NCBI GenBank assembly: GCA_947494545.1 | Contig: CANLVH010000004.1 | Location: 181,281 to 245,280, forward strand | Origin: an uncultured Mesonia sp. | GTDB lineage: Bacteria > Bacteroidota > Bacteroidia > Flavobacteriales > Flavobacteriaceae | Direction: 5' to 3' | Length of the DNA: 64,000 nucleotides | Made by a program: the position numbers and the translations under genes | Shown: in pieces, positions 16,428 to 57,684 of the stretch | Layout of the letters: every line of letters begins with the position of its first letter | Numbering within the stretch: the stretch's first letter is position 1 | The notes under the pieces: model-generated | The model's database searches: none | What the model was told of the DNA's origin: nothing | Seen by the model: the letters and a program-made list of their open reading frames with translations, nothing else

Positions 16428-17759
16428 ATGAGTGAAGATAAGAGATTCCCACGTTCGTGGGAATTTAAACTTCCCAAAATGGGAGAAAGTATTTCTGAAG
16501 GAACCATTATTAACTGGCTGGTAAACGAAGGAGATACCATAGAAAAAGACCAAATTATTGTAGAAGTTGCTACAGACAAAGTAGACTCTGAAGTGCCCGC
16601 CCCGGCAAATGGGAAAATCACGAAAATCTTTGCACAAGCAGATGAAGTAGTGCAAGTAGGGCAGGTAATTGCAAATATCGAAGCTTCCAGTGATCAATCG
16701 GTTAAAACAGATCACGCTTCCGCGGAAGCGAAAAAAGCAACACCTAAACCTTCTAAACCTAAAACACCAAAGAAGAAACCAGTCTCAACTTCGAACTCAC
16801 CTTCAACTTCAAAAACTTATACGCTTAATAAAAATCAGAACACTTACATTTCGCCACTTATTCAGAATATTGCGATAGATTATCACATTAGTTATGAAGA
16901 GTTGGCGCGCATTCCGGCAACGGGACACGACGGGCGTTTGCGCAAAAGCGATGTTTTTAAGTATATTGAAGAAGGCAGACCGGCGCAATTTGCACAACCC
17001 GCACCGGAAGCATCTGGTTTTCAAGTTCCCGATTTAAAATTGGACAAAGGAAAAGGCGAAATCATAGAAATGGACCGTATGCGGCAGATGATTGCCGATC
17101 ATATGGTTTATTCCAAACACACCTCGCCACACGTAACCGCGTATGTAGAAGCAGATTTAACCGAGATGGTAAATTGGCGAAATGCCAATAAAAAAGCTTT
17201 TCAAGATAAATATGGCGAAAAACTTACTTTTACGCCGCTTTTTGTAGAGGCAGTAGCCAAAGCGGTAAAAGATTTTCCCATGATTAATGTAAGCGTTGAC
17301 GGCAAAAATATCATTAAGAAAGAACATATAAATATCGGGATGGCCACGGCATTACCAAGCGGGAATTTAATTGTGCCCGTAGTAAAAAACGCTGACAAAA
17401 AAGATTTAAAAAGCATTGCTGCAGAGGTAAATGTCTTGGCGGAAAAAGCCAGAAATAACAAATTAAAACACGAAGAAACCAGCGGAAGCACGTTTACGAT
17501 TTCTAACGTAGGAACTTTTGGTAGCTTGATGGGAACCCCAATTATCAATCAGCCGGAAGTGGCGATATTAGCAACCGGAATCATCAAAAAACGCGCTGAA
17601 GTGATGGAATATGAAGATGGCGATAAAATTGAAATTAGAAGCATGATGTATCTCTCACTTTCCTTTGATCATCGCGTGGTAGATGGTTTTCTTGGCGGAA
17701 GTTTTTTAAGAAGAGTAGCAGATTATTTTGAAGATTTTAATCAAGAACGGGCTATTTGA
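16428..17759 (+). CDS. 2-oxoacid dehydrogenase E2 (dihydrolipoamide acyltransferase, branched-chain type)
   Basis: Lipoyl motif EVATDKVDSEVP, E3-binding domain, catalytic FDHRVVDG. Confidence 0.92.
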   Translation: MSEDKRFPRSWEFKLPKMGESISEGTIINWLVNEGDTIEKDQIIVEVATDKVDSEVPAPANGKITKIFAQADEVVQVGQVIANIEASSDQSVKTDHASAEAKKATPKPSKPKTPKKKPVSTSNSPSTSKTYTLNKNQNTYISPLIQNIAIDYHISYEELARIPATGHDGRLRKSDVFKYIEEGRPAQFAQPAPEASGFQVPDLKLDKGKGEIIEMDRMRQMIADHMVYSKHTSPHVTAYVEADLTEMVNWRNANKKAFQDKYGEKLTFTPLFVEAVAKAVKDFPMINVSVDGKNIIKKEHINIGMATALPSGNLIVPVVKNADKKDLKSIAAEVNVLAEKARNNKLKHEETSGSTFTISNVGTFGSLMGTPIINQPEVAILATGIIKKRAEVMEYEDGDKIEIRSMMYLSLSFDHRVVDGFLGGSFLRRVADYFEDFNQERAI

Positions 17760-55404: not shown

Positions 55405-55477
55405 GCGAAAATAGCTCAGCTGGTAGAGCGCCACCTTGCCAAGGTGGAGGTCGCGGGTTCGAATCCCGTTTTTCGCT
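55405..55477 (+). tRNA. tRNA-Gly (GCC)
   Basis: Cloverleaf: GCGAAAA/TTTTCGC acceptor, CCACC-TT-GCC-AA-GGTGG anticodon arm, GGTTCGAATCC T-arm. Confidence 0.97.
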
Positions 55478-55547
55478 CTGAAATGTAAAACTTTTAAACT
55501 TTTATTTTTGTGAAAAACAGTAAAGGTTTTATGTTATAAATGCTCAG

Positions 55548-55635
55548 GCTCGGGTGGTGGAATTGGTAGACACGTTGGACTTAAAATCCAATGGCCATTA
55601 TGGCCGTACGGGTTCAAGTCCCGTCCCGAGTACCA
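55548..55635 (+). tRNA. tRNA-Leu (TAA)
   Basis: GCTCGGG/CCCGAGT acceptor, TTGGA-CT-TAA-AA-TCCAA anticodon arm, long variable arm, encoded CCA. Confidence 0.97.
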
Positions 55636-55637
55636 AA

Positions 55638-55672
55638 GACCCTCTTAATCTTTTGATTTTGAGGGTTTTTTT
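55638..55672 (+). terminator. tRNA terminator hairpin, repeated in each cassette (also near 56035 and 56431)
   Basis: ACCCTC...GAGGGTTTTTTT. Confidence 0.75.
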
Positions 55673-55707: not shown

Positions 55708-56007
55708 ATGGCTGCGGTTTATATTCTTTATTCTGCTTCTATTGACTCTTTTTATGTTGGGAGTTGCGAAGATTTTGATAGTCGTTTATCGCAACATTTA
55801 AATGGTGATTTCAAAAAGGCATTTACTAAAAGAGCGAAAGATTGGCAGAAATTTCTTCTTCTTGAAAATCTAGAATATGCCCAGTCACGACAAATTGAGG
55901 CGCACATTAAGAAAATGAAATCGACTAAATATATTGCCAATCTCAAAATGTATGAAGAAATGATACAGAAATTAATAGAGAGATTCAAAACGGGTTCATC
56001 CCGATAG
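55708..56007 (+). CDS. Small GIY-YIG nuclease, copy 1
   Basis: VYILYS...FYVGSCEDFDSRLSQH...FTKRAKDW...IEAHIKKMKS. Confidence 0.9.
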   Translation: MAAVYILYSASIDSFYVGSCEDFDSRLSQHLNGDFKKAFTKRAKDWQKFLLLENLEYAQSRQIEAHIKKMKSTKYIANLKMYEEMIQKLIERFKTGSSR

Positions 56008-56016
56008 CTATCGGGA
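55999..56016. repeat. Perfect 18-bp palindrome TCCCGATAGCTATCGGGA inserted in the tRNA-derived T-arm (second copy 56395-56412)
   Basis: Replaces AGT of ACGGGTTCA-AGT-CCCG; contains the nuclease stop codon TAG. Confidence 0.95.
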
Positions 56017-56103
56017 CCCGTCCCGAGTACCAAAGATCCTCTTAATCTTTTGATTTTGAGGGTTTTTTGTTTTTATGTATTTTGTTTTAATCAATTAGCA
56101 AGT

Positions 56104-56403
56104 ATGGCTGTGGTTTATATTCTTTATTCTGCTTCTATTAACTCCTTTTATGTTGGAAGTTGCGAAGATTTTGATAGTCGTTTATCGCAACATTTAAATG
56201 GTGATTTCAAAAAGGCATTTACTAAAAGAGCGAAAGATTGGCAGAAATTTCTTCTTCTTGAAAATCTAGAATATGCCCAGTCACGACAAATTGAGGCGCA
56301 CATTAAGAAAATGAAATCGACTAAATATATTGCCAATCTCAAAATGTATGAAGAAATGAGACAGAAATTAATAGAGAGATTCAAAACGGGTTCATCCCGA
56401 TAG
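56104..56403 (+). CDS. Small GIY-YIG nuclease, copy 2
   Basis: 99 aa, differs from copy 1 at 3 residues (A3V, D13N, I86R); ATG at 56104. Confidence 0.9.
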   Translation: MAVVYILYSASINSFYVGSCEDFDSRLSQHLNGDFKKAFTKRAKDWQKFLLLENLEYAQSRQIEAHIKKMKSTKYIANLKMYEEMRQKLIERFKTGSSR

Positions 56404-56592
56404 CTATCGGGACCCGTCCCGAGTACCAAAACCCTCTTAATCTTTGATTTTGAGGGTTTTTTGTTTGTAAAATGATTTTGTTTTACTGAAATCATCTAAA
56501 ATTCCTCCCTACTTCCTACAGAAAAAATCAACAACGTCATCTTTTGGCGCTGTCGCTTTTTAGTTTTGTTTTCTAACCAAAAAACTAAAGAG

Positions 56593-57684
56593 ATGAACGA
56601 TACTACATTAGCAAAGCACAGTTTAAAAGATAAATTTACACAACAACTAGACAGCAGTTTATTTGGCTCTTATCCTGTTATGAATTTGTACAGAACCAGA
56701 AGACTTTTTGTGCTTAAATTTAATTATCTCCCTAATCTAATTGTAGAGAATCAAATAAACGCATCTAACTTTTACGCGGCTTTCCGTAAAGAATATAAAA
56801 ACTGTATTTATGAAGATTATTATGGAAAAAGAGGTTCTAAAAATCATTCCATAAAAATGGTAGATTATTATTGCTTTTTGAAAGAAGATATATTGGTTCA
56901 TATAGATTTTAACGAAGATGAGATAAGCTTACTTTTTAATAAAACAAATGAAGAAGCGGTAAATGAGATTCAGCAGCTAGTAGTAAAACACCGGCAGAAA
57001 ATAAAAAAAGAACCTAAAATAAATGTAGTGGTTTCTTCGCAGCACGGTCTTTCGCTGCATTTAATGGATTTGAATACTACAGAACTTGATATAGAAGCAA
57101 ATTATAACGATGATTTTCTAGCTGTGCACCAAACTATTTTGGCGCGTATTAAAAAGAAAAAGGACAAAGGTTTAGTATTACTTCACGGCAAACCCGGCAC
57201 CGGTAAAACTACTTATATAAAACACCTTATTTCTCAAGTAGAAAAAGAAGTTGTTTTTATGCCACCCAATTTGGCCAATCAAATTACCAATCCGGGACTT
57301 TTAGAGTTACTAATAGAAAATCCCAATTCTATTTTGGTAATAGAAGATGCAGAAGACATAATTCTTGAGCGAAATCAAAAAAGCAACTCGGCTGTTTCTG
57401 CTTTACTGAATTTATCTGACGGGATTTTAGCAGAGTGTTTAAACATTCAAATTATTTGTTCTTTTAATACCCAACTTTCTAAAATAGATTCTGCTTTATT
57501 GCGAAAAGGAAGACTAATTGCCAGGTATGAATTTGAAGAATTAGCACTTGATAAGGTAAATAACTTGTGCCGAAATTTAGGATTAACACAAGAGTATTTT
57601 GAGCCACAAGTCTTAGCGGAAATCTTTAATCAACACGAAAAAGCCAGTCAGCAGAAGCAAAAAAAGATTGGTTTTTTTGCTTAG
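56593..57684 (+). CDS. AAA+ ATPase with uncharacterised N-terminal domain
   Basis: LLHGKPGTGKT Walker A, ILVIEDAE Walker B, LLNLSDG, DSALLRKGRL Arg finger. Confidence 0.88.
   Translation: MNDTTLAKHSLKDKFTQQLDSSLFGSYPVMNLYRTRRLFVLKFNYLPNLIVENQINASNFYAAFRKEYKNCIYEDYYGKRGSKNHSIKMVDYYCFLKEDILVHIDFNEDEISLLFNKTNEEAVNEIQQLVVKHRQKIKKEPKINVVVSSQHGLSLHLMDLNTTELDIEANYNDDFLAVHQTILARIKKKKDKGLVLLHGKPGTGKTTYIKHLISQVEKEVVFMPPNLANQITNPGLLELLIENPNSILVIEDAEDIILERNQKSNSAVSALLNLSDGILAECLNIQIICSFNTQLSKIDSALLRKGRLIARYEFEELALDKVNNLCRNLGLTQEYFEPQVLAEIFNQHEKASQQKQKKIGFFA

Follow-up and report, generated by a model that had tools for sequence, protein, structure and literature searches.

The window analysed here, a stretch of 64,000 nucleotides from a Mesonia genome, contains an intact tRNA-Leu(UAA) gene with an encoded CCA (55548-55635, plus strand; ARAGORN, and 61 bits with the Rfam tRNA model), which lies downstream of tRNA-Gly(gcc) (55405-55478) and anchors a tandem array. 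Its T-loop is TTCAAGT and its 3' end reads ACGGGTTCA-AGT-CCCGTCCCGAGTACCA. Behind the tRNA, alignment revealed a terminator hairpin with a T-run (55639-55672, plus strand; repeat family D2), the first of three copies, and this is followed by a 99-aa GIY-YIG nuclease ORF (55708-56007, plus strand; from the ORF list and Pfam PF01541) and by a spare 3' fragment of tRNA-Leu, delimited by comparison with the intact tRNA (55990-56032, plus strand). The fragment consists of the 5' strand of the T-stem plus TTCA, an 18-bp palindrome, TCCCGATAGCTATCGGGA (55999-56016, no strand; inverted repeat I1), the 3' strand of the T-stem, the acceptor strand and CCA, in this order. The same features are then repeated, with a second terminator (56035-56068, plus strand; family D2, 95% identity to the reference copy), a second, intact nuclease ORF with 97% identity to the first (56104-56403, plus strand), a second spare fragment (56386-56428, plus strand) with its palindrome (56395-56412, no strand), and a third terminator found by alignment and repeat search (56431-56463, plus strand). 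The array ends near 56490, where unit homology fades about 25 nt past this last terminator.

The tandem unit of 396-397 bp, comprising a terminator copy, the 99-aa ORF and the copy of the tRNA 3' end, is present twice with 98% identity. Because both palindromes belong to this one repeat, they represent a single event that was duplicated and not two independent ones. As the original prediction had stated, both spare 3' ends read ACGGGTTCA-TCCCGATAGCTATCGGGA-CCCGTCCCGAGTACCA, and the substitution of the palindrome for AGT (tRNA T-loop positions 58-60) is exact at the coordinates given above. It had also claimed that the palindrome supplies the stop codon of the nuclease, which is true of both ORFs: the stop is the TAG within the palindrome (56005-56007 and 56401-56403), and the last five codons and the stop of the first ORF, whose C-terminus is TGSSR*, are encoded by the T-arm copy plus the palindrome. 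The same kind of ending, GS(S/F)R* with a stop codon from the palindrome, occurs in 5 of 29 homologues and recurs in T-loop cassettes; we judge it incidental.

The 99-aa protein matches PF01541 with an E-value of 3.7e-9 and 37.2 bits (cut-off 22.6), and the catalytic residues Y5, Y16, G18, R26, H30 and E64 are invariant among the 29 homologues, which are about 94 aa long. TIGR01453 covers residues 1-41 only, with a score under its cut-off, and neither a PDB sequence search nor PHROGs gave a match. An AlphaFold2 model (pLDDT 92.8) had as its top solved folds Slx1 (7cq3), the UPF0213 protein BH0048 (1zg2) together with EF2693, and the catalytic domain of I-TevI, with weak Foldseek E-values (0.02-0.1) and 22-29% identity. 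In the 99-aa protein the catalytic core is followed by two short helices (73-92), and C-terminal DNA-binding modules of the kind present in SegB and I-TevI were not found. The orientation of the nuclease ORF is always the same as that of the tRNA.

No integrase gene is present in the 396-bp unit, whose sole content is the 99-aa ORF, and the tRNA repeat is interrupted by the palindrome. At the Rfam gathering score, the window gave matches to the two tRNAs only, and 16 loci gave nothing besides tRNA, RNase P and TPP. Directly behind the array lies an AAA+ ATPase gene (56566-57684; PF00004) whose product begins with an unrecognised domain of about 190 aa. What follows tRNA-Leu(taa) is different in each congener examined, which makes this region a variable hotspot.

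Palindrome-bearing tRNA fragments in the same genome

The genome contains five exact copies of the 18-mer and nine at up to two mismatches, and a reversed control pattern gave none. With a chance expectation of about 6e-5 per 4 Mb for the exact 18-mer, a chance origin of these copies is excluded. A genome-wide survey of the palindrome within tRNA fragments, which had been suggested as a check, placed seven of the nine copies in the D- or T-loops of partial tRNA duplicates adjoining intact tRNAs, namely Leu(taa), Ala(ggc), Ala(tgc), Gly(tcc), Trp and Leu(tag). More specifically, T-loop fragments lie 3' of tRNA-Ala(ggc) and tRNA-Ala(tgc) and D-loop fragments lie 5' of tRNA-Gly(tcc), tRNA-Trp and tRNA-Leu(tag), all of these without a nuclease gene. 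The palindrome is also carried in frame by an RHS-type ORF, in which, compared to a paralogue, ATT was replaced with a net gain of 15 nt.

Partial duplicates adjoin 12 of the 37 tRNA genes, and nearly all of them have a junction hairpin, of one of three kinds: the 18-mer, the related TCCCGA-N4-TCGGGA, or a REP-like CCTGAGCG...GTCGAAGG. For the junction motif GGCGAGAAG...CTGAGCG...GTCGAAGG of other tRNA fragments, a hammerhead or other ribozyme was considered and rejected because the core does not fit; the motif is a REP-like hairpin instead. A second GIY-YIG subfamily is found at a tRNA-Asp array of three tandem units of about 485 bp plus a truncated fourth (G000:C1:293594-295340), and there two GC-rich hairpins other than the 18-mer, TCCCCAAGTGCGCTTGGGGA and TCCCCTAGTCTACTTGGGGG, interrupt the attached tRNA copy (positions 22-38 and 51-63). 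The orthologous tRNA-Asp cassette of the closest relative, G014, has near-identical hairpins.

Tandem tRNA-fragment arrays without any ORF also occur in this genome (G000:C1:385133-385720, C10:7259-7700 and C18:49250-49694). They comprise four 3' fragments behind tRNA-Gln, further fragments behind each of the two tRNA-Lys genes, and three or more 5' fragments ahead of tRNA-Leu(tag), joined by the REP-like hairpin GGCGAGAAGTTTATCCTGAGCG...AGTCGAAGG or by TCCCGAAGTGTCGGGA. Such arrays break the assembly, since one of them runs into a contig end.

Junction geometry and turnover of the sites

In the spare copies, the hairpin stem TCCCGA(T)...(A)TCGGGA stands in place of loop bases. Variants of the palindrome stay symmetric (CCCC..GGGG, TTCC..GGAA) and the central four bases are free (AGCT, AGTT, AATT), a pattern characteristic of a hairpin whose stem has 7 bp and whose loop has 4 nt. 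As single-stranded DNA, the patched arm folds at -10.7 kcal/mol and the native T-arm at -4.1 kcal/mol. We rejected a dimeric operator in double-stranded DNA, because the variable spacing between the conserved stem halves (N4, N6 or longer) better fits recognition of a hairpin. Target-site duplication was discarded as well, since the direct-repeat flanks come from low-complexity word repeats and there is no fixed duplication, and so was a sequencing-adapter artefact, as the occurrences are confined to one phylum, lie inside contigs and recur at orthologous loci.

Elsewhere in the window, the hairpin TCCCGATTGCTTTCGCATCGGGA (2399-2421) shares the 7-bp stem arms of the 18-mer and forms the central stem of a longer repeat, for which Rfam gave no match at gathering score. 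A second dispersed perfect palindrome, CGCTTCCGCGGAAGCG (16715-16730), has ten copies in the genome with unrelated flanks; in the window it is read in frame (ASAEA) in the linker behind the lipoyl domain of an E2-type acyltransferase. Its centre, CCGCGG, is the site of the GIY-YIG restriction enzyme Eco29kI.

The number of replaced bases is exactly three at at least 16 of about 20 resolvable sites, and these bases are mostly R-N-T (AGT, GTT, AAT, ACT, ATT, GGT). Read outward from the cassette, the geometry is constant, with the inner stem strand, about 4 loop nucleotides, the palindrome, 0-1 nt, and the outer stem strand. The locus in the window is of a 3' type, in which the tRNA is followed by the terminator, the ORF and the T-arm fragment bearing the palindrome. 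Its mirror image, the 5' type, starts with a 5' fragment whose D-loop contains the palindrome, followed by the ORF and the intact tRNA, and was found in the closest homologue (G011, 56% identity), in Flagellimonas, in Chitinophaga and at one tmRNA locus. In the closest homologues (G011, L072, L140, L193 and L195), the palindrome lies in the 5' tRNA fragment, 35-50 nt upstream of the ORF. An anticodon-loop version exists as well (L112).

The palindrome of a spare tRNA copy thus always occupies a cloverleaf loop at the edge of the duplicated segment, on either side of the ORF. This comparison backs the proposal of the original prediction that the palindrome may mark the point of recombination or cleavage. 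It speaks against the further suggestion that the palindrome gives the nuclease mRNA a tRNA-like CCA 3' end, given that the palindrome lies 5' of the ORF in the closest homologues, that a terminator stands behind the fragment, and that most copies have no ORF.

Comparison with relatives of the same genus showed the sites in several states. At tRNA-Leu(taa), 17 relatives have an empty site with the tRNA's own terminator only, and the closest relative, G014, has an ORF-deleted remnant in which the last 14 nt of the ORF are left and the palindrome is retained, grown to a 36-bp perfect palindrome, ACGGGTTCA-P-TGAACCCGT. Seawater metagenome contigs yielded related alleles only, among them an ORF-less form like that of G014, and a search of public sequencing runs found none from this strain, the best run containing 24% of the sampled words. 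At tRNA-Trp, the genome has 48 extra bases, made up of positions 1-14 as a 5' fragment, the palindrome, positions 18-28 and AAAA; none of the 17 relatives whose site could be resolved, G014 included, has them. The fragment and the hairpin therefore appear together. The cassette is thus present in some and absent in other close relatives, loses its ORF and is tandemly amplified. Joint appearance of fragment and hairpin, decay to ORF-less relics and array growth are the marks of a selfish module with turnover.

The CCA of tRNA-Leu(taa) is encoded in the Mesonia source genome (window 55630-55640) and in G014, and mostly not in the other 17 congeners (CCA-less examples from loci L305-L321 are GAGTACAAA and GAGTACTCA). 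From this sequence comparison, the 3' end of the working tRNA-Leu(taa) and its trailer may have come in with the cassette.

Distribution of the 18-mer and its pairing with the nuclease

A scan of 185,579 species genomes (one per species) found the exact 18-mer on at least 120 stretches; among those listed, nearly all belong to Bacteroidota, from several classes, and the flanks are unrelated. In a 401-genome sample of the phylum, 52 genomes carry the 18-mer at up to one mismatch, with a maximum of about 52-53 copies per genome. This status as a phylum-wide dispersed module had been missed by the original prediction. On viral contigs we counted 53 copies on 46 IMG/VR stretches, often at the tips of terminator-like hairpins, and a GIY-YIG gene beside none of the 53. 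Flanking complementarity is enriched, with a stem of at least 5 at 24 of 138 sites against about 6 expected. In the congener G010, the P3 helix of RNase P RNA has the palindrome as its tip. The palindrome is also contained in the tmRNA of L193 and caps REP-like and other repeats, its exact copies numbering 30-42 in G090 and G078. Across the phylum, about 95% of the 18-mer sites have no nuclease gene near them.

Single loci add detail to this picture. In the RNase P RNA of G010 (L016, G010:C22, 1224-1542, minus strand), the palindrome reads TCTCGATAGCTATCGGGA in the RNA sense, and the Mesonia source genome has a short native loop at this place. In L204 (G182:C44, 1053-1070), the 18-mer lies in frame within the GIY-YIG ORF, near the conserved Arg-x3-His region, in all three units of an array behind tRNA-Met; a nuclease gene can therefore be struck by its own palindrome. 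At L192 (G122:C1, 1800-3215), a second palindrome-bearing 3' fragment of tRNA-Val lies 1.4 kb past the first, with several small unrelated ORFs between the two, and other cargo may accrete between such fragments.

We also analysed how the palindrome is paired with the nuclease. Among 835 kb of palindrome-selected loci, 6 of 6 family-A ORFs lie 0-429 bp from a palindrome. In the 401-genome sample, the palindrome occurs in 17 of 26 nuclease-positive genomes and in 35 of 375 others (odds ratio 18, p 8e-11), a co-occurrence of which shared ancestry or a common insertion habitat could be a partial cause. A palindrome at up to three mismatches adjoins 14 of 22 homologues at 40% identity or more versus 1 of 19 below 40%, and 91 kb of control loci contained none. 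The exact 18-mer goes with one nuclease subfamily, and other subfamilies go with other hairpins; those of distant subfamilies are conserved between species at the same locus. Nearly all homologues adjoin a tRNA or tmRNA gene (in other genomes Asn, Val, Met, Thr, Ala, Leu and tmRNA), and no hairpin-free tRNA fragment was found beside a family-A cassette. Among high-copy genomes, G090 (30 exact copies) and G117 (23 at up to one mismatch) have no homologue at E<=1e-8, and G117 has none at E<=1e-3.

Known systems and possible roles of the palindrome

A literature search that included the palindrome sequence itself yielded the SegB papers alone and no account of either the palindrome or the arrangement, and the nuclease module is apparently undescribed so far. 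SegB of phages T4 and T6 is a free-standing GIY-YIG homing endonuclease within a tRNA gene cluster (PMC2330249, PMC13096335), which cuts tRNA genes at RAWTSGAAC, corresponding to the T-loop GTTCSAWTY, and drives UvsX/UvsY-dependent tandem amplification of the adjacent segment (PMC13096335). In both systems a GIY-YIG gene adjoins tRNA genes, and recombination-dependent tandem amplification matches the present tandem units joined at the T-loop. However, SegB has about 220 aa and DNA-binding modules, is phage-borne, and has no palindrome or hairpin-patched tRNA fragments, whereas the present cassette is chromosomal, encodes 99 aa (the catalytic domain with a short helical tail) and has a conserved cognate hairpin. 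Thus, of the features of free-standing GIY-YIG homing endonucleases, we found the catalytic domain and the presence/absence polymorphism at a conserved host gene, but not the C-terminal DNA-binding modules. As the best structural matches of the model, at weak E-values, Slx1 and the UPF0213 (YhbQ-type) proteins are a second point of comparison. Slx1 is structure-specific and acts on flaps, junctions and stem-loops, which would suit a hairpin-acting enzyme; it differs in needing Slx4 and in having a RING domain. We know of no mobile-element role or cognate palindrome for UPF0213 proteins.

The palindrome itself can be compared with several kinds of elements. It resembles the REP/RAYT system in that short dispersed palindromes go with a dedicated small nuclease-type gene, solitary hairpins are far more numerous than the gene, and each enzyme subfamily goes with its own type of hairpin. 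RAYTs, however, are HUH/Y1 enzymes, and the gene beside the present palindrome is of the GIY-YIG type. REPs have a GTAG or CGTC head (PMC3733652), and neither head is present in the palindrome or its flanks. REPs are moreover extragenic and species-specific, whereas the 18-mer is identical across the phylum and lies in tRNA copies, RNA genes and ORFs. Islands that integrate at tRNA genes, with the att site of the integrase in the T-loop or 3' end, likewise show an intact tRNA and then a displaced direct repeat of the 3' end that starts in the T-arm; but the 396-bp unit lacks an integrase, there are versions with a 5' fragment (D-loop), and the repeat is a hairpin-replaced loop and not an exact att core. 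Mitochondrial GC clusters or double-hairpin elements and Rickettsia palindromic elements are GC-rich palindromic insertions of 30-150 bp in AT-rich genomes of other lineages, whose targets are protein genes, where they land in frame, structural RNA genes and, preferentially, other hairpins. To our knowledge, they have no dedicated enzyme. As with these elements, the 18-mer occurs with unrelated flanks in protein ORFs (the RHS-type ORF and L204) and in RNA genes (RNase P RNA of G010 and tmRNA of L193); the present unit differs in its 16-20 bp, in the replacement of three bases and in its link to a nuclease family. We class the cassette as a free-standing homing-endonuclease-like cassette combined with a palindromic mini-element.

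On balance, and with moderate confidence, we favour the reading that minimal GIY-YIG cassettes at tRNA and tmRNA genes throughout Bacteroidota form a family and that the palindrome is their conserved junction hairpin, which would mark and destroy the cut loop. The cassette consists of one nuclease gene of about 95 aa and a partial duplicate of the adjoining tRNA, so that one working tRNA remains. In the mechanism that we propose, the predicted nuclease would cut tRNA-gene DNA within a cloverleaf loop, and repair of the break off a cassette-bearing copy would copy the cassette in, in a homing-like manner. By analogy with phage SegB, once a genome has the cassette, repair in which the spare fragment is misaligned with the intact tRNA would add units, giving the two-unit array. 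The hairpin would mark the cut-and-join point and would deprive the spare copy of the loop sequence, in this case AWT within the SegB motif, so that the cassette would not be re-excised. The hairpin is probably recognised by the nuclease itself, because the stem sequence is conserved and subfamily-specific; such recognition would also explain the spread of the bare 18-mer to unrelated hairpin tips. That solitary copies sit at other hairpin tips argues that the 18-mer can be mobilised on its own. Several observations weigh against the junction-hairpin reading. The 99-aa protein is without the DNA-binding domains that confer specificity on SegB and I-TevI, and the neighbouring intact tRNA is unprotected, which makes simple immunity incomplete. 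Most copies have no nuclease gene nearby, among them the 53 on viral contigs, and G090 and G117 are rich in copies yet lack a homologue at the threshold given above. In addition, shared ancestry or insertion habitat could contribute to the co-occurrence, and the reading gives no account of how a fixed 18-nt sequence is pasted in for three bases.

The solitary copies are what an independent selfish mini-element would leave, one that inserts in any hairpin loop like the mitochondrial GC clusters and Rickettsia palindromic elements and is unrelated to the nuclease; the spare tRNA fragments at cassettes would then be neutral, hairpin-rich sinks in which insertions survive. Copies at the RNase P P3 tip and inside tmRNA, in frame in the RHS-type and GIY-YIG ORFs, at the apex of repeats in G090 and G078, and at terminator tips on viral contigs away from any nuclease gene all speak for it, as does the excess of complementary flanks. 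We nevertheless regard it as rather doubtful, since it does not predict the subfamily-specific pairing (14 of 22 versus 1 of 19), the constant position and geometry relative to the cassette, the joint appearance of fragment and palindrome at tRNA-Trp, or the fact that a hairpin-free fragment by a family-A cassette was never found, and since the tRNA-Asp cassettes of another subfamily bear other hairpins despite the presence of the 18-mer in the same genome. We give similarly limited credence to a two-part mobile system, spread over the phylum and its phages, in which an 18-nt hairpin (stem TCCCGA/TCGGGA) and a minimal GIY-YIG nuclease with structure-specific activity would be the functional counterpart of REP and RAYT. 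There, the hairpin stem would be what the nuclease recognises, single-stranded loops of DNA hairpins (tRNA arms, terminators, RNA-gene stems) would be what it cuts, and the hairpin would then be pasted over three loop bases. If this were true, no smaller non-autonomous mobile element than the bare 18-mer would be known, and the gene-bearing form would be a tRNA/tmRNA gene drive that keeps the host gene working via partial duplication.

Two further explanations were considered. The palindrome could be pure target-site disruption, whereby any insertion that breaks the loop would guard the spare copy against the nuclease or against loss by recombination and the shared sequence would reflect common descent. 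Each spare copy is indeed broken in a loop or arm, and the removed triplet (AGT, AAT, ACT or ATT, positions 58-60) is the AWT of the SegB motif GTTCSAWTY, and to this extent the homing-like immunity put forward in the original prediction is plausible. Disruption leaves unexplained, however, why the 18-mer is 100% conserved across classes, tRNAs and loops when the ORFs are at 40-50% identity; compensatory symmetric variants show selection or a mechanism acting on the hairpin itself, solitary copies elsewhere are left unaccounted for, and the neighbouring intact tRNA is still a target, so that we consider this explanation improbable and immunity an incomplete account. A role at the RNA level, in which the hairpin would stabilise or process the nuclease transcript by acting as a terminator element or protective stem-loop or by providing a tRNA-like 3' end with CCA, appears very unlikely to us. 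It would agree with the constant co-orientation of ORF and tRNA, with the hairpin at the ORF 3' end in 3'-type and near the transcript 5' end in 5'-type cassettes, with the apex position in terminator-like hairpins of viral contigs and with a stable fold as RNA and DNA. Yet a stability element needs no exact sequence throughout a phylum, the position relative to the ORF is inconsistent, copies lie in coding frames and far from any cassette, and at the tRNA-Leu(UAA) array a separate terminator already stands behind the fragment.

In summary, what is new here is an 18-mer that is letter-perfect across a phylum and paired with one nuclease subfamily, the three-base rule with its mirror geometry, the series of filled, empty and decayed sites, and the independent life of the 18-mer in RNA genes, ORFs and phages. 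Such conservation of 18 bp, letter for letter and in unrelated contexts, would offer a rare handle on the mobilisation of very short DNA, and a compact hairpin-specific nuclease could have practical interest. If the junction-hairpin reading is true, small stand-alone GIY-YIG (UPF0213/Slx1-like) proteins of bacteria would gain a concrete, testable function and substrate. The tRNA genes of a major bacterial phylum would then host widespread, undescribed miniature selfish nuclease cassettes, to which many "partial tRNA" annotations, tandem arrays of tRNA fragments and breaks in assemblies would be traceable.
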